The notes under the pieces were generated by a model that was given only the letters and a program-made list of their open reading frames with translations, ran no database searches and was not told the DNA's origin. From contig CM119371.1 of assembly GCA_051294905.1 (NCBI GenBank), forward strand, positions 37,264,001 to 37,328,000: a DNA stretch of 64,000 nt, in the 5' to 3' direction. Both the position numbers and the translations under genes were made by a program. This document shows, in pieces, positions 8,705-63,480 of this stretch. Position 1 is the first letter of the stretch. Every line of letters begins with the position of its first letter. The stretch is from Botryllus schlosseri (taxonomy: Eukaryota).

Positions 8705-11300
8705 TTATTTACACATTTCAGACTACTTGCGATTATCATTCAAGCTTTTTATTCTTGTATGGAGAACTGCACTTATAATGCTTACTAATTTATTTGCATA
8801 AACATTTTTACATGTACCTTTAATTAGGTATAAAATTGCGAATAACTTCTACTTGTATTATATTACCAACGAGGTCTACTTAGACTAAATATGCTTCCTA
8901 CGCGGATTTGAGCCCGAATTTGTTTATCTTTGTTGGTAGACGTCTAAACTTTGGAGGCCTATCTCTAAATGTAGAGTATTGAAATTTTAGCCAAAAAAGA
9001 GTCCCCGAAAGTTTCAATATTTATTTTTTCGAAATTATTTAATGGCCGCGACTTCCTAAATCTATTTATTGCCGGGAAACGAAACCTTACCAACGCGTTT
9101 CACACAAAGCGGCGAAATGTAGGTAGTTTTAGAATCGGGTATTTATTTAGTTAGAAGGGGTTATTTAGACAATCGGGGGATATGAAATCATGGCTATTCG
9201 GTCACAATCGCGTTTTGGAATCTTCGTGACCGGATTCGAAATCTTGGCGGGCTTCGTGTTTGTTGTTTCAAGATCCAAATCTGGGAAGTCAGGCCTGAAA
9301 TGAATCGAGTGATCGACGATTGGGCGTAGACTATACTCGCTGCATTTAAAAGCAGACCAGGATCGCCAAAAACACGAACTCAGTTATCTCTTTGATCAGT
9401 GCTTCTCAACTTTGGCAGCTCGTTGATTGGTGAACTTTCAAAAAACTCAAAATCAACCCAAAATGTAACAAATGTATGCAACTCTTAACCAAATATTGTA
9501 ATCTTCAATGTAATGAGAACTACGCTGCCTTTAGATATGACTCGTGTTTAGATTTGACATGTAACAAGTCCTAAAGACGTTTTAGGATACTTCGAAGCAG
9601 TTTTGATACAACACTTGCTGCATTGTTACGTGCGTCGAAAGTAGACTCTCGATGTAATGAGAAATTTTCTGCAATGGCTTTTTGATGTAACACGTGTTAC
9701 GAGAGGTTGTATCGAAGTTTCTGTGAGGTGAAGTCCTGTTAAAAAAAACCACCAACACAATTTTTATTGTTTCCTTTCTTTTTAATGATATGCGACATTT
9801 TCTGTTTGATTGACTATATTTTATTGTCAAACTTCGATATACTGCACAGTCGAAATGCAAAGAATCGCTTTTTAAAAGCTTTCGCATAGACTTAAACGAG
9901 TTGTAGGCTAGTTGTCATCAGTTTTCTTGAATACTTGCTGCAATTTGATCATATTTGGTGATATGATGGCTGACAAACAATGTTGTTTTCAATTCTCGGC
10001 TTGTTGCTGACGATCAACCTTGACGAGTTTCAGCTGAAAATATTCCGGTTGTTTCAACAGGAATATATTATTTACTTATATATTGAAGTTGTGTACCCCT
10101 AAGAGTCCTTTGCAGCATTATAGCCAGACCCGACCGATTAGTATCGGTTCGCTGATAACATCGAGGGATGTCTTGAAGGGAATATCGGTGTCTTGAGTGA
10201 TTATTGCAAGTGGGCAAACCTTACTTGAGTGCTTCGAAGAAGCACTTGGTTACTGGTCGCCAGATGCAACTTAAGCTGGATAGCATAATTTTAAATATCG
10301 GCTTAATGTATATCGGGTTATCAGTAGATGAGCTTCCTTATCGATATCGGCTCAGAAACTCGATATCGGTCATTCTCTAATTGTAAAGTAGGATAGTTTG
10401 AAAGTATAGACAATGGAATCTATATTACAACGCGATACAGAAAATTACGTTCCAAATTTAGAAGTGGTTTTAAATTTGAATCTTCGTTTATTTAATTAAC
10501 TAGCTTCAACTTCATTTGCAACCGAGATAGCAAATTGCAATATCTTTCACAGACCGGCATGCTAATTGACACGCGTGAAAACCACTGCATTCGACCGTTT
10601 TATTAAAAACCAGTAGGATTTTAGCAATTCGTTCAACCTTTCAAATATGTTCACCTCGAATCGCAAATGTGACGAATGATTTTCAGTGAAATACCCGGAA
10701 ATCAGAGTTAAATGCATTCCGCTGAGGCCTAATTGAAGTTTTTAAAGTTCCATTGCTCGACCACAATATTGTTGTAAGATCTGATCGTTCATAAATCGCG
10801 ATATATCGCACCGAAACAGATACTCTGCCTCACTCGGTACGTCAGATAACGTTAAAGAGCCACGTGCCCGAACCCCTGCCTGAAATGGCAATCGAACGAT
10901 TGTGTCGAAACAGATGTCTCTTTAGAACGCACGCTTCAGATCTTGATCGATTTTATCGGAAGCGCGAGTTCAGGGGAAGGTCGAAAATATTTTATCGCGC
11001 TTTTAATAATTTCATGGACGGCGGAAATTTCAACGTTAGAAACCTCAAACTGCTTGTTTGTTTTAGAGATCTCACGCTGTTTCTAAACTGGTTGGGCTTT
11101 CTTCTGATAGCGAATCATCTAAGAAGGTTAGCTTAGAGTTGTAGATGGATTTCGTACTGTATGGAAAGTACTTTTGTGATGAGTTTGCATCACCTTAAAT
11201 TGCGCTAGTTAAGTCGCGATTACAACTTGGTTAAATATCCCCCGTCTAATGGTAACTGAAAATATTTTCGAAAACTGCACTTAATTGTAGTGACATAAGC

Positions 11301-11611
11301 TAGGGTTGCCATGCGTCCTCATTCAAGAAGATTTGTCCTTCTTTTTCAAGAAATCGGAAATGTCCTCGGAGGACGCCCAAACATTTGACAATTCGTCCTC
11401 ATTTATAGCTTTGACAGCCCAGTGATGGCACAAATATAACTAAAACAGGATATCGACGCAGCGCCGTCAAAAACAGACGTCTTCCGGAAGTAGATTTAAA
11501 GAAATGACCTTTTTCATTTTTTACTCAACACAAGAGTATGTATGTAATTTTCAAACTACCCGTTTCTCGTCCGATTTTATAAGTTTTGCTATTTGTAAAG
11601 AGTGTCCTCTT
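11301..11611. mobile_element. hAT-type MITE family A, right end truncated
   Basis: TAGGGTTGCCATGCGTCCTC start, same internal motifs. Confidence 0.75.
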
Positions 11612-13230
11612 TGTAACTTCTACTTTTTATTCAGTAGAAATCGACTCTGGCTACCCCCTGTTACGTGCTCACGTGCATATCTCAGCCAAACTAATTTGTA
11701 CTCAAGTGTCTCTTCGCTATTGTGTGAGTTAATCGACATCGCTGGTGATTTTAGTCTGAAGGGCCTTCAACAACGCAACACAAAAGGCTTCATTCACGTT
11801 CGACACTCGAAGATTCTAGTTTAATCTTGTAGCATCACACTGAGAAAGAGATTCGCTGCTGCAACGCTGAAATCGGGACGTTTCTAAATTGACGCGCGTC
11901 GTTGGGGACTGAGTAATCACGGGGATGCTCCCAGAGGTAGCCAGTAACGATGTACTCTACTTCTACTTCAAGCAAATTTTACCTACTTGCACTACTTTAT
12001 CAAGCGCGATGTTTTTAGGCTACTTCAATTTCTACTTCGGTTTTCAGTTTTCAATTGCATAAAACACTGTTGTTGGAATAAACCAGTCAATTTTCGGCTG
12101 ACACACTTCAACGGTAATCGTCAGCAACTAGTAGGTAATTCGAAAGTACTTCAAAAGATAAAAGTTGACGTCAAAGTTCATAAATGGAAATTTTTTATCA
12201 AAATACGCAAATCAAGTTTGTTTCAACAAAAGGAGCTCGAGCATCATCTAGATCTGTTCGACTCAATTATTAGAAATTTCATGCCTGTAACTCGGGTTGC
12301 ATTTAAAACAAACATATGTTTAAAACATGGACCTTGTTTAAAACATGTTTTTTTGTTCGTTTTTTTAGCCATGACGTCAAGAATCCTTAAATGTGACGTC
12401 ACAGTGGATTGACATTGACAATTGAAAATAAAGAGTAAATATGGCTCCTTTGACGAGAAAGGCTTCCGACCACTGTTATAAACGGACCAAAAATATCTTA
12501 TGCCAGGACTACATCGTTATGCAGTATATTCACGGTCGGCGGTCATCCAACCATCTGGTAAACGAGCTTAATAAGTGATGGCTGCTGTGATATGGGGTGA
12601 TTGTGGTTCGAAATCGTAATCGATTACATTGAAAAAGAAATCAAAGTCATCTTAACAGAAAAGATTGTTTTACAGATACAGTCGATTTCGCTTCATTTAG
12701 ATACCTTGGTTCCGATCACTTTTGTTCGAATTAAGCAGAAAATCAATTTCACGACTCATGGTCACGCATAAAGGCAGATAACGTGTTAAGAATACTGCAC
12801 TGTTGCGTAATAAATGAATTGCACCAGCGCTGCATTGCAGTAGCCTAACTGGCACTGGTCGCATAGAACACACAAGAGTTATACCTTCACAATTGCATCT
12901 CAATAAAAGCTACTACGCAGATGGCACGGCCTTATACAACTTCATTTTCGATTGACACTCCATTGGACAGCACTGGACCAGTACAAAACGCCAATCTAGT
13001 TTTTTTACGGTCAACTGCCTGCTGGTTTTTTGAGTAGGTCTAGTTTTAGTTGCGGATTTTGAAAAGAGAGTGGTTCTATTGTTCCAGTTGTAAATTTTTA
13101 AAAGTGAGTAGTTTTATCAGTAATGATTTTATTGTGGATTGTTACTTCATGGGTCGTCATTGCTTCACTGCGATCACACATTTTATGTTAAAACGAACGA
13201 AGTACTGTTTATTGTGTTGTAACATAGTAA

Positions 13231-14189
13231 AAGGGATGGTGCGAACCTCTGAAAGGTTCAGGTTCGTGTGAACGCGAACCTTTTTGAAAGGTTCTGTGTG
13301 AACGCGAACGTGAACCTCATGACGTCACGTGACGTCATATTGCTAATTCCAGCCCTATCTTTTAATGAAGTGATAGCCTATATTAATTTGCACGATACCT
13401 GGCGATGACTCGCGCCACATAATGCCACGATGCTGAAGTACATATTGGCGTTTTAAACGTCGCTAAATGTATCAACTGAGTCAATCAAATGATATAATAA
13501 TCCCATAAAATAAATATCTTCCGACGCTTTGCCGACAATTTCGACGAGGACTTGCCTGGGAATATAAGCTTACATCTTAAAAGTCTAGGCCAGACCAGAC
13601 AATGCATTCGGCGTCTGATCATTGCTACATTCATATTGAGCAGAGTGTAAAACAGGTTTCTATACTTGCTACTGATATTACCCCGCAAGTTATACAGCTG
13701 TAGCCAACACCTCAATCACACGGATTTGGTTTTAATAATACAGTAAACCTGCTATATTTGTTACATCAGAAAACGATATCAATCTCGTTTATTGGTTGGA
13801 TAAGCATCATTTGCTGACCACATGTAGTGTATTTCGCTCGTGATGTTGTGTGATTGCGGGTCAATACCACAGCAGAGAGTCACTAAATATTCACAACCGG
13901 AAAGCTGGATATTTCGAGCAAACTTTTGTAACAATTAAAGCAAGTAAAATTTTTGAGATTGTCAAGGGGCGTGCTCGTTTTGTGTTGATTTTTTTTCAGC
14001 CAGCATCATGCATAGAGTTGAAATGCAATAAATTCGAACCAAAGATGTAATAGTGACGTGAAAATTGTATTATATGAAAAAGGTTCACAGTGCAGAACCT
14101 ACCAAGGTTCTGTTGTGAACGCGAACCTCTAAATTTCCGAGGTTCACACACAGAACGCGAACGTGAACCTCACGTTCACACCATCCCTA
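13231..14189. mobile_element. hAT-type non-autonomous element with GAACGCGAACGTGAACC repeats
   Basis: Ends AGGGATGGTG / CACCATCCCTA, flanking ATAGTAA on both sides, colinear with 56169-57160. Confidence 0.88.
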
Positions 14190-17680: not shown

Positions 17681-20595
17681 CAGTCAGTTGACGTAAAAGT
17701 TGATGTCACGCCGTGAATTTCTACTAAATTGCACGTAAAAGCAGCTATTTTGGAGACTTGTAAAAACTAATTCTAGTGGAAGTAGATAAAACATGGCTTG
17801 TAATTTCAAAAATTAGATTTGGTCGATGGTTCGCATACTCTAGGCGCGCAATCAGGACTGGGTACTTTTGAAATTAGAATATTCATATTCGCGACTAACG
17901 CAACACCACTACAAATGGGTGAAATCTACGAAAATATATTAAGTGACCGTAATGCTGGAGCTATTTCACACGTACAAAAACTATTTCACATATAAATATG
18001 ATGCAAACTCATCCTAAAATAAATCAAACCGAAATTAAAACCAACCAAATCTACAATCTCAAACTGTAAAAGCAAGTATTCTTGCTTGAAAAACCAATCA
18101 GTAGATGCGGCAGTAGCAAATATAGAAGGCACAAAAAGTGCTGAAGTAAATAGTTTCCAAAAGTAGGTGGGTCACACACTTTTAGCAGTTATCAGAGCTG
18201 GCTACTTTTGTAATCGCCATATTCACGCAAAATAACTATAAGACACCACAAAAAGTTAGAATATTCGCAATTATATTCATTTAACTCGACGCAGAGCCAT
18301 TTCCCACTCGTGGTACGACTCTTTCACTAGTAAAAGTGTCGTAAAATTATCTTAATACTAATATACGGTTGTCTAAATCCAATAGTGTAAAAGTAAGCGG
18401 TGCTCCTAAAAAATGAAATGTAGCAGTGAAAAAAAAACAGAGCCACTTAAGTGAGTATGAAGCAGGCAAAACCTTAAAACAATGGAGGTCAAATATTTTG
18501 AATGCGAAGAATTCAACCAACGAAAGTGACTTGATGTCAAAGCGAAAACGAAAAATGTTCTCGGCAAACTTACAACTTTCAAGACTACAAACGGCGGTGA
18601 TTATGAAAGGTACAATGGCGCAATAATCGCATCTACTTAACTAATCCTTGTGCACGTATCAATTGTGACGTACACGCCACCATTGATGATAAGATGCAAT
18701 AGAAACATTTGTTCCGCCGGGACAAGGCGGTCGATTTTTCACAGAACAGTCAATCAAATACAGTCTGAATACTTTCATTAGATGTGTAGATGTGTAGATG
18801 TACTCAACACTCATTTTGTTCGCATCTATTTTTGTTTGGTGATAAATAAAGATCATTGTAAGTCTCGAGTGACGAGTACACGTTAACCTAGTAATTTAGC
18901 GATGATGTTTCGAAAGTAGACAACCTCCTATTAAATGCAGGTGGCGATTAATTCATGGATTACTGGAATTAACTATTGGTAACGACCCTGGTAGCACTGC
19001 TGCAAATATGAGCATGGATTTGGATTGACAATTTGTGATTCTCTCAATTTTCATGTGACTTTTGAATAAATACAAACCATTACCGGATTTTGACATCTCC
19101 GTTACTTACTCAGGTCGTTATGATGTTGCCAGATTACTTCTACTTAGCCCAGAGAAGGAACGTTCCTTTCCAAGGATAAAACCTTTTAACTGACGCCAAC
19201 ATTAACGCCGACGTATTGGAGTTTTTACGGGAATCAAAGCGTCACTATCATTGTGTAACATTCACATTCTGAAAATTTGTTGAATCACATTTGTCAAAAT
19301 ATCTCAATTGCCGTGGTGCAAAAATCCTTTGATGCGAAAAGCACCACTAAATGTTTTTACACATAATAATAGTAATATTTATTACAATATTACATTTCTA
19401 CCCACTTGAAAATCACTACTGATATTGAGTATGACTTTGCGGAGTTTCTTCAATTTTTACTTGATTACCAACGACGAATACTTTGACCAACTATGGAAAT
19501 ATCCTTTGTCGGATTGTGCGTTTTGGTTTTTGACTTGAATCTGATCCGGAACCCGGAACAGGCTTTTGATTCGAAAGTATTAAATTCACTCATCTCTGCC
19601 CTGGTGGCTGCAAAGTTGTCTGCAATGATTTACTTTGCAATTTTTTGCAAAGCAAAGGTATGTCGTGACTGGCTATCCCACAATACGAATCACTATGCTC
19701 ATTTGCGTCTGCGCCATGTCTTGTAGCTCGTTACGGTGCATCAATTTTGTGACATCGAAATCTTTATTTCATCTGACCGTAGAGCACGGTTGAACTGCGG
19801 CTGACTTTCGACTTTTTTGTGTGATTCAGGCGCGAACCACCCGCACTGATCTCAGTTTACGAGGTCACGGCGAAGGTCGCGATCATCTGAGCCGCGCCAA
19901 ACTAAGTGACTTGAACTTTGTTCGTCTTGTTTTAAAGTCAGAAAATTGCCGCTTGGTCGGGATGTTTTCAAGTCGCGAATTGCGACCAGTCAAAGTGATC
20001 AGCGTTTGCACTCAGATGGGAGTGACGCGGTGAATTTCCACTCACGTGCAAGCGCGCATCACGATTTGCAAGAGATTTCTGAACTGCTTTACTTATTAGG
20101 AAATAGAAAATGAAAGGCCCGAGAGAGTTAGGCCTGGGCTCAATGATTCGAGTGCTTAAATCTGAATCTCGAAATAATTCGAATGATTCAAGTTGTGAGA
20201 GATTATTGTTTCGAGTAATGAAATTGCACGCGCTCCTTGCCACTAGGCGGTAATATACCAACAAAAACTATAGTTTCTATGTACTATTTTCAACTGTAGA
20301 AGCCTTGAAACTTCAATTAATGGTGTCGCAGCATACGAAATATGTAGTACAAATCTACGCATGATATTGAAAATGACATATCTGTAACGTCGTGATTAAC
20401 TCACAGCATCGTCTCAAAGTCCAATGAAGTATCATCGAAAATATGCCTCATTATCTTTAGCGTGATAGAGCTGATGGTATTAAATTATTGGTAAAGCATT
20501 AAAGGTAAAGTATTTGAACTTTCCACATACGAAGATACGAAAGTTCGCAGGTTTCGTAAAGTAGAGTTGGTCGAGTGTTAGCATACTAATAGGTA

Positions 20596-21107
20596 TAGAG
20601 CTGGGCAAAATCGAGTACCTGAGTGATTCGATTCTGAATCACGTATTACGCTTCAAATCGAGTATTCGAGTATCACTCATTATGACGTCATAACAGAATG
20701 TACCATGTCAAAGTTCAGATATGTTCCTTTTATGCCACCACAAAGAATATAGTACCTGTGATGCGTCACATTAAAGATATTTTGGTATTTTTTTATCATA
20801 CCGATTTTATTGCACTTCTTGACAATGTTGTGGGATGGTCATGACTTCGGAAATGTGTTATTTCCAGTAACGTGCGTAGCTTTGTACTATGTCTAGTATG
20901 CTGCGACTCGGCCAATCAAGGTTTCAAGGTTTGCTCAGTGGAAAATAGAATCAAAACTATAATTCTAGTTAGTAAATTTGACTTTCAGTTGCAAGGAGCG
21001 TATAATTTCAGTAGTCGAAAAAATCGTATTTTATTACTCGACTCGAATCATTAAAATTAATACTCGATTCAGATTCGAGTATACTCGAATCCTTGTGCAC
21101 AGCCCTA
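20596..21107. mobile_element. hAT-type MITE family B (TACTCGA-rich)
   Basis: TAGAGCTGGGCA / TGCACAGCCCTA, flanks CTAATAGG(TA) / CTCATAGG. Relatives near 30467, 31984, 39257 and 45570. Confidence 0.8.
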
Positions 21108-35883: not shown

Positions 35884-36848
35884 ACCCGCGGCCTTCTTTG
35901 CGAGAACTGGCGATAAAACTGCGTCGCGCGAACCACCAGCTTCAGAATCGAGAGTGGACGCCTTCGCGGAGACAGCTCGCAAGTAGCGGACGTATCATCG
36001 AACGTAGAGTTGTTTGCAAGGCTTTCTGCAGTCGCGAGTTCAATAGAGATGCTCATGTTCAGTGAAGTTGGTGTTCATAGATCCATATTACAAATCTATG
36101 CGAATGGTAGTGCCTAACTTAACATATAGCTTCCAGAACTACATCCATTTCAGTATAGTTCGTTAAACTTGAAGACTCTTCATGTGTCCCTTATCAATAT
36201 AGTTAACAACCCAACTATAACAAGTATATAAGCAGGGATTCAAAGTCTCAAGTTTGCATAGGTGACGGGCATCTTGAATATAGCTTTCAATGATACATTG
36301 TTTGCGTGTTGTATAATATATCAAACTTGAAGACTTTTCTTACGCGACTTAACGAGAGTCAACGGCTCAACGCCGCAATAACAAGCATAGAAACAGAGAT
36401 CCCAATGTCAAACTATGAGGTATCGGTAGCGCTCACTATAGCGCTAAATTATTCACTTTAATGTTAACGTGATGCCCGAACCCCAAATTATCTCGCGTCA
36501 CAACGATCGCGCGATGTTTCGGTGTAAGGACTCAATTGCTACCTTGCCATAGCCTGGCGTTTCGATATGAGAGTGAGATGTATGTCCTAAATATTTTGCT
36601 GGACCGATACTTTACTGCTAAGTTCCAAGATCTTACCCTTCTGTGCTGTTTTTTGCTGCTAAATTGGTGTTCTCTATGCATCATTCTTCATTTTGCCGGT
36701 GCAAAGCCGCAGTCTACGTGCTAGAACCTGTCTGCTGTCGCGAATGCTAATCAAAATTGTTTTTCTTTTAATAGACGACATAAATAGCTCGTTAACGTAT
36801 AAGCGTTCCAAAGTGTCATTATTATCATATCGCGATTGTGACCGCACT

Positions 36849-37997
36849 ATGCATCATCAAGCGCAACAATCGTACGCAGTCATGCAGAACAAGAGCCTTA
36901 TCTACGGAGACCCGTGTGAAAGCGGCTACTCAACGACGACTTCTAGCGAGGAAGGAACCCTGCAGAGAGGATTCACGAAAAAGCAAAATGGTGGATTTGA
37001 GAGCGAGTCCTTTCTCAACAACCCGAAATTTCTCGAGATGGTGTCCAGATCGAAGGAATGTGACTACACTTACAGCCCTGCGTCGTCGCACGGATCAGCA
37101 GACTCGCCGTTGGCTTTCGGCATTCCAGACCACATTCCTACTACGATAGACGGATTACGCCACGCTGATGATATCACGAGTGTTGATGACGTCAACGTAG
37201 CCGCGTTACAAAAGTTTAAAGACAATTTGGAGAATATCAGAACCTACCAAACAGCAAAACCACAGAAACCAGCTTTTAGTTATTATGACCCCTTGCACAT
37301 TGCCGATGTGACGCAGGGTAAAACCGCAAAGTCTGCGTCACCTTCTTCAAGCAATGGCAGTCCCAAAAAACCGATTCCGATGAGAAGATCCCAAAACAAG
37401 CATAGGGGTCCCATAAATTTCTCTTCAGAAGCACCTAAGAACGTTGAAACGTCAATTAAATCAATCTCGCCCGCGGCAGATCATAAATCAGCGTTCGTTG
37501 TGGTGAAACCACGTGTTATTCATCGGCCTAGTCCAACAGAAAGTCAATTAACTTACCAGCACACTTGCAGTCACGATACGTGCGATAAAACAAATCCTTT
37601 GCCTGCAGCGAGGTCCCGAAAACCACAGAGGCCTGCCTCTCTCGAGATTCAGTCCCCAACAGAACGTATTCCGACTCTGAGTCCCATAGACGGCGGTATC
37701 GTGTACATTCCAGCGCAAATCGATGAGAACGGAATCGCCAGACCTGTGGCGAGCCTCGGTTCGAAACGGGAAAGCCGAGTTTGTGCTCGAAACAAGAAGA
37801 ATTCGAACCGAACCGAGGTCGCCGGTGACGAAGCGGCTCGGTTGCGGGAATATCTCGAAAAAGCGGAAGCCAAAGACTTGAAATACGCTCTGGAAAAACT
37901 TTTGAAGTCGCAAGACCCGAACTCTATTGAAGCGATGACAAAACTTTTTCCGACGACTCGAAAGCCAGAAGCGTCTCACTGTCTCCGATGCCACAAG
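36849..37997 (+). CDS. Coding exon 1 of a 477-aa uncharacterised protein (Ser/Pro-rich N-terminus, start of Cys/His-rich domain)
   Basis: Longest ORF in the window. ATG at 36849 follows an acceptor-like TTTTCTTTTAATAG ending 36774. Exon ends ...HCLRCHK at donor AAG|GTAACT (phase 0). Confidence 0.9.
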
Positions 37998-38277
37998 GTA
38001 ACTACATTCATCAATACTTTTTTTGTTCAAAATTACGATTATTCTCTATTTGAATTCCGGCACTAAACGAATAATTAGACACTGCATTCAATGATTATGA
38101 TATTTTATCAATCTCGATGTTCAATCACGATTATTCGATTGCGATTATCGATCATTTTGCTGTAAATTCGAGATCTAAACAGGTAAACAGGTTGAACATT
38201 GACCGATTACGATTTTTACCCTAGTTTCGATCATATCGTCGTAAATTCTGGTTCTAAACTTGCTATTATTTTGTCAG

Positions 38278-39784: not shown

Positions 39785-40156
39785 CAAATTTGAGTCAATT
39801 CCGACTTGTAGAAGCGGAGTTATTCGAGTTTTTCGTTGATAATTCTTGGATTATCCTTGATCCGTGGATTATCAACGAAAAACTCAAATAGTTCTGCTTC
39901 TACTAGTCGGAATTGACTCAAATTTGATTTGCATCGTCTTTGAAGACAACTCAACAATTTCATGGGGTTGAGAGAAAAATTTGAGAATTTTTTTTTAATT
40001 TTTAATAATAAATTAAAAATTTCAATTCAAGATTGCACGGCCTTTACTGGTTGGAATTGAGTCAAATTTGGTGTGCATCGATTTCTTGGACAACCTGACG
40101 ATTTAGTCATTAGGCGAGTGAGATTTGGAAAAAAAAGTTTTTTTTGAACAACCCTA
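39785..40156. mobile_element. Left-truncated copy of the same palindromic MITE
   Basis: Same centre (TTTTCGTTGATAAT...ATTATCAACGAAAA) and right end GAACAACCCTA. Confidence 0.85.
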
Positions 40157-46471: not shown

Positions 46472-48044
46472 AAAGAATATTAATCTCAAAATAAAATGAA
46501 AAATAGCTGTATCCATGTATGTGTCTATGATGTATCCATAAAAGACTATTTTGGTAGTGGTTCCTCCATTCGCCTGTCTTTTCAATATATCACGATCTTG
46601 TGATTTGTTAATCTCCAGCGAAATCTCAATTAATCACGATGACATTAATTTTTTCTTAGAATTTTTCTTTGAAGACATATTAGAAGACAATATAACGATA
46701 TTGATGGGAAGGCCTCATGAGATAACAATTATAATTTTTAATGTGACGTCATTTCTGTCTTACGTCACAAAATAGTCATTGCTTAACCTTATAGCTGGCG
46801 ATTTATCGCACCTAACGATTTGTATTCTAGCCAGGGCCGTAACTGTTGCACTCCAAACCCTCAAATGGTGGGGGGGGGGGGGGCAAGCTAGAAGGTGGCC
46901 CGCCAACAATATTTCGTAAATCAACCCTTATAGAGTATATTTTTGAGATATTTATTTTACTAGAAAATGTTCTTCGCGCTCCGCGATTTAATGTCGCTAA
47001 ATATCTTTTTATATCCATATCCCTACCCCGACTCCACGAAGTATGCTACCAAAGAAAGACCACGGTCAACACTTTCTATCTAAATGTGTCTATTGTCCGT
47101 AGCCGCTCTGAATAGGTGTGAGGAATAGTACTGTCCTGCCAATCTTAGCCCCACATTATACAAATGCTACCGCGGAAAGCCACAGATGAAATGATGCGTA
47201 CACGAGGAAATCTCAATTTATGTTTGCGTGACACTAAAGAAGTTTTTCTTTTAGTTCAGTCCGGTACGTTTGGGCGACTCCAATATCCTTTAGGTCTATA
47301 GCAGACGGGATGTCACGAATTAATAACATGCAACAAAGTAATAATAACAACGGGCACGCCCAAATATGTTGGAATTGTTAACTACGTGCCGTAAATTTTC
47401 GCAGTCACCGGCTTCCTCAGCTCTACCGGTAAATCTGAACACGTGGTCTGAGAGAGGATCAAAAATGAATAGCTATATATTCAATTACCAATGTTATTGA
47501 GGAAATGCAGTCATGAATCAGAAGTTTGAATGATCACCCGATAGGGGTCCGAGACCCACGTTTGGGGGAAGGGCTGACGAATTGCTGTATCGATTCTGAT
47601 TCTGGCTACAGCCCACCATGGTGTCTAGATCAGAGGCCGGGAACCTTTTTCATCAAAAGAGTCATATTCATCAAAAGAGTCATAATTCGGAAAGAGCCAT
47701 ACAATGATTCAAATTGACGGTTACGTCACAATTGAAGATTTGTTGCGTCGTGGTGGCACTATAGAGTATGACTGGAGTGACGACTCGATTGTTCTCCCAT
47801 TGTTAGCCGGCAGAATGGTCACGGTCAGATGGATCCACCCAAAACAGGATAGCTCAGTGCTTGTTTCAATGGCGTTCAAGGCGATTCTTCGTGTATTTCT
47901 TGAAGTTGCGTCGGAATTAGTTAGACAGTTCAACATTTAGGTAGCGGTGGCGAGTCGTTATGACTAGTGAATAATACCGTGTAGCCTCTGTTATATTTTT
48001 CGCCAGATTTAGATCATATTTCGCCACGGATATAAATCGGTATC

Positions 48045-49099
48045 ATGACTGATTCAGCTGCATCACTTTGGGATGACTGGGAGGGACTGACTGAAATGGA
48101 AATTGAAGAATGTTTCGAAGGACTCGATAACTGGAAAGGTGTGATTTGTGAGGAATGCGAAGCATCCTTTCTGACTGTGAAAGCTCTGAAAAAAAATTAC
48201 AAAAATCATAAAGTTCCCACCAGTACTTGGGATATATCTGAGGATGCTGTAATTGCTGTTTTGAAGAGGGCTTGTGTAAATACCAAAAAATACTTTGAAT
48301 GCGCCCCATCATTCGAGGAACTAGACGTGACCAAAGCTGTTCCATTGGTGAAACAACTCCATTCTGAATATTGCAAACTTGGTGTTGACGGATTTTATCA
48401 ACATTATTCTAATATCTGTCACCAAGCTAACAAGTTGCTGGGTTTGCCGCAATTGCCAGCTTCAGCATCACTTTTGAAGATGTTTGATTCTCTCGTGTGC
48501 GGTAAAGAACAGGATCCAATCACAGAGATTGGAGGAGTCAACAGCAAGGAATCTGGTAAGTAAATAGCCTTTGATACTTTGCCTTTCCATGGAAAAACTT
48601 TGACATGTTTTTAGACATACTTGAATATATTGGTGGAGTGCTTTTGGGAGCCATTTCTAAGCAAGCTAACGAAGCAATTGCCACATGCCTAACATCTGCA
48701 GCGCCATCAGGAAACCTCATTAAAGTGATGCAGAAGAAAGTCGGTGGATTGAAGAGCCCGTCTGAACAGTTTCATGGCATGGTTCTCCGCTTTTATGTTA
48801 TCCACAGTAAAGAAATGGCAAAACCCCTGAAAAAGATCAATTTTTTCAGGGTACTTGACGCAATTCACTGTGATCCATTCTTTAACAAATTAATTCATAC
48901 TGTGTCACTTCAATCTGGCTCAGACCTAAATGAGGTTGAGGATGTCATGGACAAGGCAATGAGACACTTGAATAACATCTTGTCTCACAATTTTGCAAAG
49001 TTTGCATTGCATGAGAAGCAAAAAAAGTCCTCCAAATTTTCCAAAAGTTTGCGAGATGGCTTGAAAAAAAATGAACAATATGCTCTTTTAGTATGGTAG
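48045..49099 (+). CDS. Two-exon 331-aa gene inside the P-like element (48045-48555 + 48615-49099); degenerate C2H2-like finger plus a region resembling P-transposase C-termini
   Basis: A 59-bp GTAAGT...TTTTTAG phase-1 intron joins the 172-aa and 164-aa ORFs in frame (...KES-D-ILEYIGG...). Motifs: CEECEASFLTVKALKKNYKNH, LEYIGG...LI...GGLKSPS, basic tail KKSSKFSKSLRDGLKK. Confidence 0.75.
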
Positions 49100-49361
49100 T
49101 TTTTTCTCTCTGTGGCAAATGCTGCCTATCCACATTGAGGTTCCCTACCTAAAAAAGGAAACCAATGCGTTGGTCGAAACCTTGACGTGGTGCATTGGCT
49201 TACTACTAATGTCGACCGGCAGATGTCTTCCTGTGTTCTTGGCAATGACAACGAGTTCCCTTCAAGTGCGATTTTGCACACTTTCAAGGAGTAAGCTCTG
49301 GCTATTGTGAGTCGAGCTCAAGCAGAACATTAACATTACACAAGGCTCTTGTTCTAGTCAT

Positions 49362-50679
49362 CAGGGCCGTAACAGCACTTTGTCAGCCCCCCCCCAAACG
49401 TTGGTCATGGGCCCCTCATAGGGTGATAAACCGAACTTCTAGGGGGCTTCGCCCCCCAGACCGCCCATTGGCTATACGCTGTGTACCGCTACTCATCATC
49501 TGTGTTCACCGTCCGTTTAGTGGGGCAGCTTTGGACGTCCGCAGGCGCGAAGCGCAAAAAATTTCAAAATTCATGATTTAATCGGTCAATATGATCGGGA
49601 ATTGAATATATATTATTATCAATTTTTATCCTCTCTCTGCCCACGTAATCAGATTTAACGGTAGACCTGAGTGAGGTGTGTTTGAAATGGTAGGACCCCT
49701 CAATAATAATTGAACATCTTCGGGCGTATACCCGTTCGCAGGAACGAAACAGCACTTGGCCAGGCCCCCCCCAATAAAACTTGGGTCTTGGGCTCCCATA
49801 GGGTGATAAACCGCCCCCCCCATCACGTTGTTCGCTTTTGTCACGAAATAAGGGCCACAGTTTAGTGAGGTAGCGCGAGGCGCGAAAATATTCGATAATT
49901 CATGATAAAATCGGTCAATAATATTGGGAATTGCATATATATTATTGCTATCAATTTTTTGTTCTCTCTGTTCACGTTGTCAGATTTACCGGTAGAGCTG
50001 AATGAGGTGGCTTGGAAACTGTAGGGCCCGTAAATAATAATTAAACATATTCGGGCGGGCAGCCCCGTTGGTATGACCTCGTTTCATGATGTCATTTCGT
50101 GATCTCCTGTCCGTTATATCAAAAAATACAGAATCGCCCAAATGTACTAGAACTAGACTAACGATGCACGCGATCTCAAATTGGTATTTCTTTACGGGCA
50201 TACAATCTTTCCCTGCGGAGTGGTATTTGTCTTCTGAGGTTCAGATTGCCAAGACAGGAACATTCGGCGCCAGTCATTAAGGCGCCTATGGAAAATTAAA
50301 CCTATATGCATTTTGCATATATAACGAAGTTTTTGGTCAGCGTAAGCGGGCAGTCCTTTTTGGCCCAGGTTTTCTCGCTGCCGGTCGTTCTGGCACACTT
50401 CTTGGAGTCGCATGTTACATGTTCTAAAACTTTAAATGTCTCGCCGATATGTCCATTTCGACAAATCTTGCGTATTTTGTCTTAGGGAAGAGTAGGCTAC
50501 CAAATAACTAAGAAAGTTGGCAACTTGAAATCACACGCAGCGCGAAAAATTTTTGAAAAAGTTGCATAAATTTTTGAAAAATACTCAATAATTTATGCTA
50601 ATTCGCGAAATAATTTTGGGCCCCCTTCGAGCTCGCCCCCCCCAAGTGGGGGGCTTGGGGTGCGGCAGTTACGGTCCTG
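49362..50679. mobile_element. Non-autonomous hAT-type element nested in the P-like element
   Basis: TIR CAGGGCCGTAAC / GTTACGGTCCTG, perfect 8-bp TSD CTAGTCAT, internal duplication of about 330 bp. Confidence 0.92.
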
Positions 50680-51393
50680 CTAGTCATACTCAAGTTTCTG
50701 CGGTTATCGGACAGGCATTATATAAGACTACAAGACAGTTGCAATATTATTTGTTATATTCATACTCGAGTTTCTGCAGTTAATATAGGACATATTTTCA
50801 ATCAACTATATTGTGAATTGCATATCGGGATAGTTCAAGATCTTTCCACTTGTTCACTTTGTAGTATTCTTCAGTCTTTCTTTCCATGAGTTCATCTCAC
50901 AATAGCCAATGCACACGAACCAGATATTCTATACCTTCTATCATTATATTCATATACGTAGCAAACTCTACAAAGGATCAAAGCCACAATATCACATCAA
51001 TCTCGTGAGAAATGTAACATAGGCTACACAGTATTATTCACTAGTCATAACGACTCGCCACCGCTACCTAAATGTTGAACTGTCTAACTAATTCCGACGC
51101 AACTTCAAGAAATACACGACGAATCGCCTTGAACGCCATTGAAACAAGCACTGAGCTATCCTGTTTTGGGTGGATCCATCTGACCGTGACCATTCTGCCG
51201 GCTAACAATGGGAGAACAATCGAGTCGTCACTCCAGTCATACTCTATAGTGGCACCAAATCGAAGTTCACTTCATGTGATTCGTCGTGTGCGTCATATTT
51301 CTGTTTATACGCGGATATGATGTTATAACCGCCCGCACAATTCAACCGGATGCCCGACGTTTGAGCGTGCAACATGCATTGAGCATTGGACAA

Positions 51394-52012
51394 TAGGGCT
51401 GTTCAAAAATAACTTTTTTTTCCGGATTCCAGCCATTCAGTGATTAAATCGTCAGGTTACCTTAAAAAACGCTGCACACCAAATTTGGTTCAATTCTAAC
51501 AAGTATAGGGCTCCGCGGATCCAATTAAAATTTTTAATTTAAACAGGAAAATTGAAAAAAAAATTTTTTCAAATTTTTCTGTCAACCCCATGAAATTGTT
51601 GAGCTGTCTTCAGAGACGATGCAAATAAAATTTGACTCAATTCGGACTAGTAGAAGTGGAGTTATTGGAGTTTTTCGTTGATAATTCTCCAATTATCCTT
51701 GATTGGTGGATAATCCGAGAATTATCAACGAAAAACTCAAATAACTCCGTTTCTACTGGTTGGAATTGACTCAAATTTCATTTGCATGGTCTTTGAAGAC
51801 ATCTCAACATTTTCATGGGGTTGAGAGAAAAATTTGAAATTTTTTTTTTTTTAATTTTACGTATTAAATTAAAAATTTTAATTGGCTCTGCGGACGCTTA
51901 GACATGTTCGAATTGAACCAAATTTGGTGTGCAGCCTTTGTTGTGGCAACCTGACAATTTAATCAGTGAATGGCTGGAATCAGGAAAAAAAAGTTATTTT
52001 TGAACAGCCCTA
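51394..52012. mobile_element. 619-bp whole-length palindromic (foldback) MITE
   Basis: Ends TAGGGCTGTTCAAAAATAAC / GTTATTTTTGAACAGCCCTA. Arms pair imperfectly to a 9-nt loop centred at 51703. Perfect TSD TTGGACAA. Confidence 0.93.
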
Positions 52013-55000
52013 TTGGACAATTTAGCTTAGTTAGTCATACAGGCGTCGCCATGTCTGCTTTTCTATCTGTTTAACCAACGCATTGTGAAATCCAAGATTT
52101 CAAGTCGTGCAATAGTGGGTACAGCGAATTATGATATTGGATAAAATATTGACAGCAACTTTGTTTTTGCCATTGCGTAAAGTTCGTATCGAACTTGACG
52201 GATTAGATTTGTCCGATATTTCCACTGAATAACGTGAAGGTGGCATATTTGCGCTATTATCGAAACATCTATTGTACTACATTGGACTGATAATAATGAG
52301 CAATTATCAGCAGCAAATATTTGATAGACATTTCAAGATTTTTAGTCTCTGAGCTCCTACATCATTCCCAGGGTTCGTCACTGTTTTAACCTCATGAACT
52401 TGTCTCGTCTACCACAAGAATAATTACGCCACAGTCGTTATGAAAATTCAATAAGAGCTTGAGTCAATTTTGATAAATGCGATGGGAATAATGTGTAAAA
52501 TTATCAAAGTTATCAAGTCATCGAAGAGCCATATTTTATCAGTAGAAGAGCCATATATTGCTCGCGAGTCATAGGTTCCCGACCTCAGGGCTGAACATTG
52601 TTTCTAATCATTCGTGTTTAGCGTCTTAAAGGGGCAATTGATTTGCTTGTATAGCAGGTATTGCACTGAATTAACAATAAATTGAGGTGTTTAGCAAAAT
52701 TCCGAATCGAGTTATTTTATGGCATACTTTAAATCCGCACGTAACCTGCTCTTGCTAATTAAATGAATAGATCACGGTCTTTCAAAACCTCACTACATTG
52801 TGGAAGTCCTTCATCGCTATTATTGGTAGCCCGGTATAGAACCACTGCCTTACATTTTATATTACTAGCTGAAGTGGCTAGTATCAAAGTACATCTGCGG
52901 AAATAGAAGGAAAATCATGCGGCCGTCGACACTTAATTCGATTAGGATGTGTTAGCGGCCGTCAATATGCCAATTTAATTTACCAATTGACTCCCAAAAT
53001 TTTGATAGGGGATTAAAAACAATTGGCCCAGCCAAAGATGTAGCACAACATTAATAACTGCCTTAAGTTTTTGAAGACACCCGGTGCATAAACTCTGCCC
53101 GTGAATCTGATCACATGAGCTGAGAAAGAATAATTATGAATAATGAATGAATGAATGCACTCGAGTAAATTTGCCTCTAGCTAGAGTGGGGGTGGGCGAT
53201 TCGCCCTCCAGTTAGTTCATTACGACTATGCACTGGAATGCGGCCGTAGGCTACATATATAAGTAATCGATTGAAGCAAAAAGGTTGGTTATCCCTGCTT
53301 TAGTTACTGAAAAATGTTGTCAGGTATCGTGCGCAGCTCATAGTTCAAAATAGAATGCAAGTGATAATTATGATTTTTTGTTGTATTTGTAATTCCTAAA
53401 TAAAGCATTATTTTTTTTGTGGTAACTATACCCATCATCTATGTTCGAGAGCACAGCGTTGTACTTACTTGAAGTTATCAAATTGTGGCCGTTAAACTGC
53501 GTTACCTATTATTAGCCTACCTCAATATTGAAGTAACGCGGCCCGCGGCCTTTACAAATTTTGAAAAGTGGCCCGTGACCCGTTTTGAGTTGGCAACACC
53601 TGCTGTAGGCCGACAACAATGTCTGTGATAGAGAGATAAACGTTTTAGGGTACTGACATGTCTCACAGCGTTCTTTACAGAATTGTCAATTGCGTTACAA
53701 ACTGTTTGCTTATTGTATTTATAAAGCCAGATTACTCAGATTACAAAAAACATGGCTATATCGAAATCGAAAATCAAATCGCATTAAACCGCGCCTAGCG
53801 AGAAGAAAATTTCAAGAATAATTCCAACCTCTCATTAATTAGGGAGTAAATTCGTAAACTCAATTTGCATATTAACGGCCACCAAATCCTAATCGAATCA
53901 AGTGTCGACGGCCACATAATTTTCATTCTACTGCTGCAGTTTCTCCAGCCGTCGACTAAAGAATCGATATTGGGGTTATCTAGACACGGTACTTGCTGGA
54001 AAACTATCTCCTCGTAAAGCTTGGTCTTTTGGGGAGCCCAAAGTCGTTTTGTAAGTGTCTCGGACCTGGCAGTTGTCGGCCAGACTTACACGCTAAGGCA
54101 ATATGCCCAATTGCCCATGCCCATTCATATCAGAAATTTTTTCCTTCAGGGAATGATATTATCATCGTCCAAGCCGTATCAGCTGGTGAGGGATAGTGAT
54201 ACTGGGCACAGGAGAATAGCTTACTTCGAGCATCAACAAGATTATGTTTAAACCGAAAGAAATTTCAGCACTTCAAAATGATTTACTTCAAGCTTTCTTT
54301 CGAAATTTCAAACCCGGTCGCGGGCAGCTAAATATAACCTCACAGGTCGCGTGCGAGTGACCTCTGCGTTGCACGAAAGTTTTGAGCAAATTCTTTGAGA
54401 TATTTCATCTATTATGACTTGATCACCGTAAAATAATTGTAGTATTATTATTTAATACAAAGTATTGCCAGATATTGTATTTGTAGTTGAAGTATAATAT
54501 TAATTCTTATGTGTACCGCGCTTAACTGAAATAATTACAATGCTCTAGATTTCAAATTGCTATGTATTTTTCAACAGCAGTGTTCTCAATTTTCCAGGTT
54601 CTGAAAATTGGAGGAAGAATCGCTATGAAGCAGGGAATACACGATCCGTAAACGCGTCCGACTGTTTCTCTCCTCAAAGAAATAAAGAGCAGAAAGAGCA
54701 CGAATGTGAAAAGTCGCGTCCGTTCGCGTATTTCCATCGTCAGGCGCTATGTAGTAGACGGGAAAACTATTGTGGGGTTTGGTTAGCGCTTATCTAAGGT
54801 TTCACTGGTTAAATTCGGCGCTCTATTTGCTAAATGTCGCGGTAAAATAGCGGTAGTGTCATCAGGTATCAATATTGACGATTAAAAGACCATTTGTTTG
54901 TGGTCATGGATTTGTTCGGCCTGTATGCAGTACTTTCTGATGGTAACTTGCTGGGCTTGTTTTCTCTAACTCCTCATGATAGTTATATTGCTTCTAGTAA

Positions 55001-56168: not shown

Positions 56169-57160
56169 TAGGGACGGTGCGATAACCTCTGGAAAGTTCC
56201 GGTTCGTGTGAACGCGAACCTTTTTGAAAGGTTCTGTGTGAACGCGAACGTGAACCTCATGACGTCTCGTGACGTCATACTGCCAATTCCAACTCATACA
56301 TTTTAGTGAATTGATAGCCTTGCGATACCTAGTGACGACGCGGGCCACATTATAAGGTCACAATGCATAAATACATATAGTAACGTTTTAAACGTCTACA
56401 GATGTATCAACTGGGGCAATCAATTGATATAATCATCCCAGAAAATCAATATTTTCTGTCGCTTTGAGAGCAATTTCGACGAGGACTTGCAAGGGAATAT
56501 AAGCTTACGCCTTAACGGTCTAGGCCAGACTGGACAATGTATTCGGCGTCCGAGTATGGCTACGTTGATATTGAGCAGAGTGTAAAACGGGTTTCTACAC
56601 TTGCTACCGATATTATCGCAATAACAAGTTATACAGCAGTAGCCAATACCCCACTCGCACGAATTTGGTTTTTATGATAAAATAAACATGAAATCAATGT
56701 TGGCCCCGTACGCTTGCTAGATTTTTTACATCAGACATCGATATTAATTTCATTGATTGGTTGTATAAGCATCATTCGCTGACTACCGAAATGCAGTGTA
56801 TTTCGCTCTTGATGTTGAGTGATTGCGGGTCAAGCTCGCAGCAGAGAGTGACCAAATATTCACAAACGGAATGCTAGATATTTCGAGCAAACAAAGCAAG
56901 TAAAATTTTTGAGATGGTCAAGGTTCATGCTCGTTTAATGTTTTTTTATGCTGCCAGCGCCAAGCATAGTGTGGCCCGCAGTTGAAATGCAATAACTTTT
57001 AACCAAATATGTTTTAATGAAGTGAAAACTGTAATATATGAAAAAGGTTGACAGTGCAGAACCTATCAAGGTTCGTTTGTGAACGTGAACCTCTAAATTT
57101 CTGCGGTTCACAGCTCACACACTGAACGCGAACGTGAACCTCACGTTCACACCATCCCTA
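56169..57160. mobile_element. Second copy of the 13231-14189 element
   Basis: TAGGGACGGTG / CACCATCCCTA, flanks CTTCCGAC / CTTTCTAC. Confidence 0.88.
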
Positions 57161-58486: not shown

Positions 58487-59333
58487 TGTGGCAGCCGTGC
58501 TCTATACTGCCCCTTACGTCAGTTGTAGTATTATCGCATCGTGCTTTCACTTCCTCTTTTGCCTCTGGCCGCTTCGGCGGCCAGACGTATAATAAAAGCT
58601 CTGCAGCAGTTGTTGAATCGTGTGTGATCAACTACAGACGGAGGTCTGCTACAATGGCGAGCACGCTAAAAACGTTACTTCATTAATTTGGCTGCAAGTC
58701 TGAAGATTCCTGGACAGTAACGGTATGCTGAAAGTTGGCGGAAATTCGATTACGGCATTGGCTATTTGAACCGATTGAAGAAGCAGTTTTGCATCGATAT
58801 GAGAAGTTTGAAGACTTGACTGATGGCTTCACTTCGTAATGACTGTTTCACTGGCGGAACTGATGTGAGCGCGCGTGGAGGGGATGGAGCTTGTGACTCT
58901 CCCGGTCCGATGTCATGAAGAGGGGATGGAGCATGTGACTCTCCCGTTGATGTGGCGCGGCGTTGTTAGGGTTTTAGTTTAGGGAATTGTTCACTGATGT
59001 TAGTTTAGGGTTAGTGTTCTGCTAATGTGATGCGGTCATGCGGATGTTTGCGATTTTGTTGGTGATTTTGAACTTGTCGGTTTTGATGTTGATGTTGCTG
59101 TTTTTTTTTTTATTGTAGTTTGTGAGAGTGCTTTTATAGGCACTTCTCAAGTTTGATGGGGAATAGTGTGGCAGCCGTGCTCTATTCTGCCCCTTACGTC
59201 AGTTGTAGTATTATCGCATCGTGCTTTCACTTCCTCTTTTGCCTCTGGCCGCTTCGGCGGCCAGACGTATAATAAAAGCTCTGCAGCAGTTGTTGAATCG
59301 TGTGTGATCAACTACAGACGGAGGTCTGCTACA
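58487..59333 (+). mobile_element. Miniature non-coding LTR retroelement (TRIM-like), 847 bp
   Basis: 167-bp direct repeats 58487-58653 and 59167-59333 (TGTGGCAG...CTGCTACA, one difference seen, contain AATAAA). PBS-like TGGCGAGCACG one base after the 5' LTR, purine tract GATGGGGAATAG before the 3' LTR, 4-bp TSD CCAA. Confidence 0.92.
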
Positions 59334-59407: not shown

Positions 59408-60322
59408 CAGTGTTGGGATGACTCGAGTCACCTTTTTCGCATGACTTGACTTGACTCGAGTCACTTTGCTAAAATGACTTGACTTGACTTGACTCGGCGT
59501 ATCAGAAATATGGATTGACTCGTGACTCGGAGCAAAATTCACGAGTCAATTTCAAGTTATCAAGAAATCGATGTCGATAACAATCACTGTATCTTGCATA
59601 TGTTCGGATTGTTCGCGAAACGCTGGTGTAACCCGAGAGAGCGACCAATCATTCAATGATCGTGGGTTTCACTGAGCCTGGATTGTTATCTCACAAATAA
59701 ATTGACCGCAAACGAAGTGATCGATGCTTACAGCTTACGCTGTCGTAACTCTGGTATTAAAGTAATAAAATGGCAAAATGTCTAAATGTCTATTTCCGTT
59801 CTCTGTTCTTACCTTAACCAATAAACTTATTGTTTTATTGAAATTGAATTCGAATATAGTTTATTTAGTCATCAACCATTGGCGCAAGCTCGAATTGTAT
59901 CATGTATATTTGTATATGGGTAATGTATTGCATATTATCAATTCGTTTCTCTATTCTCTATTTTGACTGGTAACTATAAACTGTGGCTAAACAATTACGT
60001 AGTTTACCAGTTCTACGTATATGTGAGTGATACAGCGCCTTCTTGCGTGTATATCCAACTCTATATTCGTTCATCGGTTCGGAAACAATGACCACTCAAA
60101 CTGTATTTCAGAGAGCTAGGAAATTGCAATGACGTAGTCATGCCTCATACATACTTCAAAAAGGCAACTTGACTTGAAATGTGACTTGAATCGTGACTTG
60201 ACTTGACTTGACTTGACTCGAGTCACCTGCAAAAATCGATTGACTTGACTTGACTTGAGTCAAAATGTGCAATGACTCGAAATGACTCGTGACTCGAAGG
60301 TAGTGACTTGATCCCAAAACTG
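59408..60322. mobile_element. hAT-type MITE with GACTT/GACTCGAGTC subterminal arrays
   Basis: TIR CAGTGTTGGGAT / ATCCCAAAACTG, perfect TSD CCATGACT. Inserted into an older GACTCG-rich element starting at 59341. Confidence 0.93.
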
Positions 60323-61016: not shown

Positions 61017-61936
61017 CAGTGTTGGGATCAAGTCACTACCTTCGAGTCACGAGTCATTTCGAGTCATTGCACATTTTGACTCGAGTCAAGTCAAGTCAAT
61101 CGATTTTCAAAGGTGACTCGAGTCAAGTCAAGTCAATCGATTTTTGGCGGTGACTCGAGTCAAGTCGAGTCAAGTCAAGTCACGAGTCAAGTCACAATTC
61201 AAGTCAAGTTGCCTTTTTCAAGTATGGGGCATGATAAGGTCATTGCATTTTGCTAGCTGTCTGAAATGCAGATTGGGTGGTCATTGATTTTGAACCGATG
61301 AACGAATATAGAGTTAAATATACACGTAAGAAAGCGCTGTATCGCTCACATATACGTAGAACTGCTTAACCACAGTATATAGTTACGAGCCAAAATAGAG
61401 AATAGATGCGAATTGATAGGAAGCAATACATTACCCATTTGTAAATCAATATGATACAACTCGACTCTGCGCCAATGGTTGAGGACAATATAAACTATAT
61501 TCGAATTCAATTTCAATAAAACAAGAAGTTTGGTTAAGGTAAAACAGAGATAAATTACTTTACCATACTAGTTTACGACAACGTAGCTGTAAGCTTCGAT
61601 CACTTCGTTTGCGATCAATTTATTTGTGAGGCAATGGAGGCACAGTAAAACGCACGATCATTAAATGATTGGTCGATCTCACGGTTACACCAGCGTTTCG
61701 ATAACAATCCGAACATATGCAAGATTCAGTGATTTTTATCGACATCGATTTCTTGATGACTTGAAATTGACTCGTGAATTTTGCTCCGAGTCACGAGTCA
61801 ATCCATATTTCTGATACGCCGAGTCAAGTCAAGTCAAGTCATTTTAGCAAAGTGACTCGAGTCAAGTCAAGTCATTCGAAAAAGGTGACTCGAGTCTGAC
61901 TCGAGTCAAGTCATGACTCGAGTCATCCCAACACTG
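61017..61936. mobile_element. Second copy of the same MITE in opposite orientation
   Basis: TIR CAGTGTTGGGAT / ATCCCAACACTG, perfect TSD GTGTGAAA, interior is reverse-complement similar to 59408-60322. Confidence 0.93.
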
Positions 61937-63053: not shown

Positions 63054-63232
63054 CTAAAGAAAACAGATCGCTCAATGTCAATGGATACGAAAGCCATAAA
63101 TTGACAACGAATGCGATTTGTAGGAAGGTTAGTTTTCTAGGTACGGTTCTACTTCGATTAATTCGCTCAACTAGACTGCGCGCGTCAAGATATCTGCTAT
63201 CGGTCGGTGTGTTTGGAAATAATATCCTAGAC

Positions 63233-63480
63233 CAGTGGTCGGGAACCTTTTTCGTCCGAAGAGCCATTTTGGCCCAATTTTTTCCATTTTAACTCCCAAA
63301 GAGCCATATATGTCAATCAACTGTTACGTCACGATTTAAAATTTGTGACGTCATCGTAGCACTTATACAATCTCACTACAGGGCATTCATCGTGTTGCCT
63401 CCTTTTTTCTGTAAAAACTCGTACTAATCATGCTGGTATAACCTTATTCGAGCATGCAAACCTTGAGTTACGAGAACGTA
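63233..63480. mobile_element. Left part of a Charlie-like MITE related to 47631-52588
   Basis: CAGTGGTCGGGAACCTTTT after TCCTAGAC, GAGCCAT motifs. Right boundary not located. Confidence 0.65.

Follow-up and report, generated by a model that had tools for sequence, protein, structure and literature searches.

A probable non-autonomous P-type transposon of Botryllus schlosseri encoding a homologue of the P-transposase C-terminal domain as a separate protein

Structure of the element

The subject of this analysis is a 64,000-nucleotide stretch of the Botryllus schlosseri genome (GenBank assembly GCA_051294905.1, contig CM119371.1, positions 37,264,001 to 37,328,000 of the forward strand), called the window below and numbered from its first letter. 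At 47760..51248 it contains a transposable element whose terminal inverted repeats (TIRs) are long and which carries one gene of two predicted exons, the second of which resembles the C-terminal domain (CTD) of the P-element transposase. The left TIR (47760..47987, forward strand) and the right TIR (51021..51248, reverse strand) are each 228 bp long, and the left one has a degenerate extension to about 48020. When arm is compared with arm, there are 2 mismatches in 228 bp, 5 in 240 and 11 in 261, the arms decaying inwards from the ends of the element. A repeat finder delimits them as 47751-48020 and 50988-51257 (270 nt, 96%). The location and the arms given in a preliminary description of this DNA, made from the sequence alone, are correct, including the 228-bp length with about two mismatches, but a nested element in the interior was missed.

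The gene (48045..49099, forward strand) is separated by 262 bp from this nested element, a 1,318-bp non-coding sequence at 49362..50679 with short TIRs (CAGGGCCGTAAC and CAGGACCGTAAC) and an 8-bp duplication, CTAGTCAT, at 49354-49361 and 50680-50687. From the length of its duplication we take it to be hAT-like. It is built of very high-copy repeats and has internal duplications of 330-380 bp; an end related to it also begins at 46832, outside the transposon. The remaining sequence of about 330 bp between the nested element and the right arm (50688..51020) has no recognisable frame, and no transposase remnant was found in it. Outside the TIRs, the gene and the nested insert, only about 560 bp belong to the family. 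A Pfam search of the two exons and 15 other frames of the element gave no THAP, Tnp_P_element or catalytic-core family, in agreement with the preliminary description, and the THAP domain and GTP-binding RNase-H (DDE) transposase by which the P superfamily is recognised are not present within this element. The missing core is expected of a non-autonomous copy; the P membership rests on the CTD and on the duplication, and the parent element is a putative one.

The ends of the element and the insertion site

The sequence GTGGCAC is present on both sides of the element, at 47753..47759 and 51249..51255 (both forward strand), and would be a 7-bp target-site duplication (TSD). The element sits in an older repeat resembling a miniature inverted-repeat transposable element (MITE), at 47625-47759 and 51249-51330. 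An empty paralogue of this older repeat lies at 63227..63443 (forward strand); it can be aligned with 47625-47759 on the left of the element and on through the right flank as far as 51330, and crosses a single GTAGCAC (63356-63362) where the element would sit. The insertion event is therefore visible within the window itself.

The target site is palindromic, and duplications of 1, 3, 5 and 7 bp are each compatible with a single copy. The corresponding termini would be CACTATAG, ACTATAG, CTATAG and TATAG, the last of these under the 7-bp reading. Since a 7-bp TSD requires three chance matches, and TSDs of 5, 3 and 1 bp require four, five and six, 7 bp is the most parsimonious and most likely length, with 5 bp as the alternative. 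Of the 7-bp quasi-palindromic TSD that had been proposed, the sequence at both ends therefore stands, while the length is unproven.

Contigs from four sequencing runs (X1, X6, X12 and X17, the RNA status of X6 and X17 being a guess) also bear on the ends. One X12 contig tracks the right arm to 51250 and then departs from the window sequence; this makes a CAC..GTG (CACTA-like) end less likely. The main contig of X6 reaches no further than 51249, one base past the 7-bp terminus, as would be seen either if the first G of the target is invariant or if the duplication is 5 bp long. A CACTA/EnSpm element, with a CACTA end and a 2-3-bp TSD, was considered and rejected, since the CACTATAG end allows only a 1-bp duplication and the X12 contig contradicts it; the preliminary description had named such termini in other copies as evidence against itself, and in this copy they are not found. 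The TSD lengths given in PMC10045372 are 9-10 bp for AcademH, 3-4 bp for AcademX and 6 bp with TA..TA ends for IS3EU. A 3-bp duplication (GGC, with the end ACTATAG) is formally possible as an Academ-type TSD, judged from one site only. Neither a 9-10-bp duplication nor an IS3EU-like 6-bp duplication with TA ends fits the outer ends, and no 4-bp duplication does so, save TATA at an inner position.

The two-exon gene

Exon 1 (48045..48555) encodes an acidic N-terminal segment (10 D/E in 30 aa), a C2H2 zinc finger and a helical domain that is common to intronless homologues. Exon 2 (48615..49099) encodes the homologue of the P-transposase CTD (about residues 625-734 of 6p5a_B, a chain of the Drosophila P transpososome) and ends in a basic helix. 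Between them lies a predicted 59-nt GT-AG intron of phase 1 (48556..48614, forward strand, as are both exons). Once this intron is removed, one 331-aa frame results, as the preliminary description had found. Such a frame is not expected by chance: when any GT-AG intron of 50-80 nt is allowed, a spliced frame of at least 331 codons appears in none of 300 dinucleotide-block shuffles (mean 123, maximum 217).

The intron is supported by homology, because the homology profiles join at the splice junction and a close relative ends at the donor. Aligned to a profile built from 12 intronless homologues, exon 1 finishes with a stretch that covers positions 81-137 and exon 2 begins at 138, and the exon-1 profile matches the intronless family with E=6.2e-5 over 96 columns that reach the junction. 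The relative P0054, which is 79% identical, stops matching exactly at the donor. In the reads the intron is not seen spliced: the joint 48555/48615 is absent among the 15 of 279 joints listed, a list crowded by nested repeats, from runs whose RNA status is guessed. Six frames that contain exon 2 only, including that of the window, form one branch (99/99, in a tree of 20 rows that include two partial ones). Of the other exon-2-only frames in this branch, three start abruptly 6-15 residues ahead of the conserved motif. Such starts would follow from a shared intron.

The C2H2 finger occupies codons 35-55 (48147..48209, forward strand). Its first His is Asn in the window copy, while the majority of contigs in all four runs and the relatives P0053 and P0054 have His. 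Both relatives, 95% and 79% identical, have a complete CxxC..HxxxH finger (Pfam E=8.4e-5 and 9.8e-4). The finger described beforehand as degenerate is thus degenerate in this copy, but canonical in its relatives and in the majority contigs. None of the intronless homologues has such a finger, so that it is an addition of this lineage. The acidic helix, the finger and the helical domain of exon 1 are all absent from the matched P structure, and the helical domain gives no clear fold match within the model of a full-length homologue (best Z 6.5 or less). Two stretches of exon 1, at residues of about 66-87 and 115-135, show weak alignments (0.9 and 6.7 bits) to one and the same part of the family profile and are perhaps an old internal duplication.

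Exon 2 and the C-terminal domain of P transposase

An exhaustive phmmer search with exon 2 against 1.84 billion representative sequences, with no length limit, gives 19 matches, all of 91-312 aa and one identical to the window sequence. Nine of them are single-frame proteins of 277-312 aa with their own starting Met and their own conserved N-terminus. These nine share one plan: an acidic N-terminal helix, a variable linker, a small helical domain, the motif EY[IL]GG..G.LI..ME...G.L.YPSE and a basic LR..LK end. The YIGG..LI..GGL..PS segment of the preliminary description is the form of this motif in the window. Across the wider family the plan is kept at 24-46% identity. One homologue is annotated in RefSeq as a Ciona intestinalis gene that has isoforms; its C-terminus is aberrant. 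When exon 2 was compared by word index with proteins 283-2000 aa long, none of 690 candidates was left, which is weak evidence, and a search of the ESM Atlas (best 0.83) is uninformative.

A profile of the 19 sequences (A1) matches the CTD of 6p5a_B with E=2.9e-4, the next match having E=0.57, and a second profile (A2) matches the same chain with E=2e-4. Pfam Tnp_P_element_C is matched at E<=1 by nine of the 19 members (best 3.5e-5), the window exon not being among them. The structural models point in the same direction. For the model of exon 2 (predicted local distance difference test score, pLDDT, 90.9), 6p5a_B ranks first among 48,161 chains, with Z 9.8, a root-mean-square deviation (rmsd) of 2.5 and 106 residues aligned. 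It also ranks first for the full-length homologue model (Z 9.7, rmsd 2.7, 114 of 118 residues aligned; next Z 7.0), in which only residues 123-269 correspond to the P structure and the core chain is absent among the best 50 matches. The P-type CTD is recognised by the family profile and the fold, not by the single sequence; judged from these alignments and models, the homology of exon 2 to the P-transposase CTD is solid, and the affinity to the P superfamily proposed beforehand is upheld.

The confinement of all 19 homologues to 312 aa or less, together with the N-terminus of their own that nine of them have, confirms at the sequence level a stand-alone CTD protein family that would not derive from truncation. 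The preliminary description had named a truncated piece of an ordinary transposase as what would overturn it, and a family with its own N-terminal half was found instead. Its proposal of an accessory gene that is not a transposase is right in that the gene is separate; the protein is not unrelated to the transposase, however, and would be better described as its detached CTD subunit. Two homologue clusters have 10-11 members each on long contigs, and one of them spans 64-311 aa, as would be expected of decaying copies of a transposable element. The contigs of the homologue clusters P0008 and P0034 reach 1.4 and 2.2 Mb. For the homologue P0013, 20 of 30 matches in the ESM Atlas are clusters in which DUF6589 occurs in 21-28% of the members (score 0.90-0.91), a weak lead to another transposon group that may share the domain.

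Copies of the element and selection

The depth of X1 over the bins of the gene is 9,479-13,608 but only 169 and 236 in the flank bins next to it, and that of X6 is 131-382, against 7-19; neither figure is a copy number. Together with many variants at partial frequency, the depth indicates that the family may have some tens of copies. At both junctions of the nested insert, the main contigs of X6, X12 and X17 continue into it for 25-33 letters; bridging was set at 31 letters, a mark that only one of these junction contigs passes. Since contigs of three runs enter the insert, it appears to predate the spread, so that the family spread after becoming non-autonomous and most copies probably carry the nested insert. 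The ratios of depth between TIRs and interior differ inconsistently from run to run and give no basis for an autonomous partner. Deletions of one base in the gene that are confined to X1 were treated as probable read errors.

The window copy differs from the majority by four sites that change an amino acid and two silent ones, among the nine coding variants listed (183 further rows are in the table). The silent share expected under neutrality is 0.21, and the 4:2 ratio is compatible with it. After 7-15 random changes a frame would still contain no stop in 46-69% of cases. That the frame of this copy is open therefore reflects its youth, the TIR arms being less than 1% apart, and not selection, and individual copies decay in a neutral-looking way. 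The preliminary description supposed that the gene was retained after loss of the transposase; with its derived changes at this ratio and the His of its finger lost, the copy does not support retention by selection. The conservation of one plan across the wider family shows, so far as sequence comparison can, long selection in the parent lineage.

Origin of the element and alternative explanations

The best explanation, to which we give a better than even chance, is that the element is a young, multi-copy, non-autonomous cut-and-paste transposon of the P type, mobilised in trans and derived from a P element whose transposase was split between two genes. In the ancestor, the THAP/RNase-H core would have been encoded by one gene and the CTD by a second. 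The ancestor of the present family would then have lost the core gene and gained the hAT-like insert, and the CTD-only derivative would have spread by its own TIRs, with the core transposase that moves it supplied from another place. The product of the derivative may act as the CTD subunit of that transposase. In the P transpososome, as described in PMC7776569, the all-helical CTD is tied to the RNase-H domain by a disordered linker, lies between RNase H and the other subunit's GTP-binding domain, and touches both transposon and target DNA, with a basic helix pointing to the target. A domain that is flexibly tethered and works across subunits can become a separate polypeptide. The acidic helix and the helical domain of exon 1 might dock the protein on a core that has no CTD, replacing the covalent linker, and the C2H2 finger of this lineage could add a DNA contact.

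Several observations weigh against this explanation. Foldseek places 6p5a_B third, with E=0.72, and gives no match at E<=0.001, so that a comparison of folds with P transposase, as the preliminary description proposed, succeeds in the structure ranking but not in Foldseek. A Z near 10 is within the common range for helical proteins, and the models derive from the same alignments as the profiles. Single-sequence searches of PDB and Pfam with the exon alone give no significant match to the P CTD. Prokaryote-style gene calling on eukaryotic contigs cuts genes at introns, which favours short proteins. The two longest contigs across the intron (X17, 48175-48718, and X12, 48375-48837) keep it unspliced. 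P and Galileo elements end in CA..TG, and here such termini are absent, the ends being TA..TA (or CT..AG). Finally, the collections scanned yielded no parent that combines these TIRs with a core transposase: the TIR pattern has one match in metagenome contigs, a chance 20-mer in a bacterial ATP-synthase operon, and none in viral contigs or prokaryote genomes.

Four other explanations have to be weighed against a trans-mobilised derivative of a split P element. The transposon might be segmented, or multipartite, with CTD and core each borne by a TIR-bounded element of its own and the two complementing one another in trans, as viral segments do. The present family would then be a functional helper segment or a titrating regulator, selected at the family level, whose finger possibly steers target choice. 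It would suit this idea that many copies have spread in which the gene is open and a core gene would find no space, that the majority allele keeps a canonical finger, and that the 79%-identical exon 1 keeps the frame, the finger and the donor site. The replacement and silent changes match the neutral share, however, a stop-free frame has about an even chance or better under random change, and the near-identity of the TIR arms makes youth a sufficient explanation; a segmented transposon is accordingly unlikely. Hardly different in probability, and if anything slightly lower, is the proposal that a different DDE superfamily, Academ-like or unclassified, shares this domain with P and has the CTD-like gene as its second gene, with a TSD of 5 bp (CTATAG) or 3 bp. 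The ambiguous terminus, the end of the main X6 contig and, as a lead only, the DUF6589 of the clusters around P0013 speak for it. The P CTD is nevertheless the sole match in PDB and Pfam, the Academ duplications of 9-10 bp, the IS3EU duplication of 6 bp with its TA terminus and most 4-bp duplications (PMC10045372) do not fit the outer ends, and the X12 contig that departs after 51250 opposes a CAC..GTG end.

Capture and truncation fit worse than either of these. A domesticated host gene, itself derived from a P CTD, could have been captured between the TIRs of an unrelated MITE as Pack-type cargo; a stand-alone annotated homologue exists in Ciona, and the gene contains an intron, its start lying immediately inward of the TIR. 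We consider this improbable, since the homologue clusters are multi-copy with broken members, the Ciona protein is aberrant at its C-terminus, and it would take a coincidence to place a P-derived gene within an element whose duplication is of P/Galileo type. The 3' remnant of a normal, single-gene P transposase, for which the correspondence of exon 2 to the last domain of that protein alone would speak, is largely refuted and the least probable of all: exon 1 has its homologue in the N-terminal half of stand-alone proteins with a starting Met of their own, the resemblance to P in the full-length model stops at residues 123-269 with no core chain among its best 50 matches, and no homologue is longer than 312 aa.

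Other features of the window

A near-wholly palindromic MITE lies at 51394-52012; it has 314-nt arms that are 87% identical and an 8-bp duplication, TTGGACAA, and a relative lies at 39786-40156. Further long inverted-repeat elements are found at 59420-60322 / 61017-61896, 20129-20522 / 20710-21107 and 52895-53009 / 53828-53939. A dispersed repeat of 1 kb is present at 13232-14189 and 56170-57160 (79%), and a direct repeat of 167 bp at 58487-58653 and 59167-59333 (99%). The open frame of 467 codons at 36663-38066 (forward strand), which has no Pfam match, is probably a host exon.

Comparison with known systems

Exon 2 is related in profile and fold to the CTD (residues about 617-734) of the 87-kDa transposase of the Drosophila P element (PDB 6P5A/6PE2). 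In that protein the CTD ends a single chain of six domains, while here it belongs to a separate 331-aa gene product with N-terminal domains of its own. The Drosophila element has TIRs of 31 bp and a TSD of 8 bp; the present element has TIRs of 228 bp and a probable TSD of 7 bp. Non-autonomous P deletion derivatives that encode proteins are known, such as KP, of 207 aa (PMC7776569). KP and the 66-kDa repressor keep the N-terminal THAP end, however (PMC7776569), whereas here the opposite end is kept, as its own gene.

Palindromic TSDs of 7 bp are the norm for Galileo and 1360 (PMC4168063, PMC3698922). The element shares with Galileo its long TIRs, a palindromic TSD that is probably of 7 bp, a palindrome that extends beyond the TSD, and abundant non-autonomous copies with nested transposable elements (PMC4168063). 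The Galileo TSD consensus is GTANTAC (PMC4168063); here, at one site, it is GTGGCAC, or GTAGCAC in the empty paralogue, with GT..AC in common. Galileo has a single intronless transposase gene, and a separate CTD gene is not mentioned in the available text of PMC3698922. The preliminary description called the element Galileo-type, and the length of the TIRs and the TSD do resemble Galileo; the resemblance goes no further, and the element cannot be filed there.

A separately encoded P CTD is not described in the literature found, including the accessible portions of PMC7776569, PMC4168063, PMC3698922, PMC10045372, PMC10799480 and PMC10824691, a scope to which subscription literature, Repbase and work on AcademH and on Ciona P elements do not belong. 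The role of the P CTD in isolation is untested according to the part of PMC7776569 available, and the last basic residues are unresolved in the structure. A conserved free-standing CTD protein allows this role to be probed separately from the core, and it offers a modular targeting subunit for transposon tools. As a decaying derivative, the present element contributes a clade that has a C2H2 finger and an intron, and a mobile family with the CTD only, more than a proof of mechanism.

In PIF/Harbinger, in the RAG1L/RAG2L transposons and in En/Spm, the sequence between the TIRs also encodes a non-catalytic protein that helps the transposase. These second proteins are not known to be related to any domain of the one-chain transposase of their own superfamily, whereas the protein described here would be a detached CTD. 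If it does derive from a two-gene transposon, P would join the superfamilies that have two-gene members.

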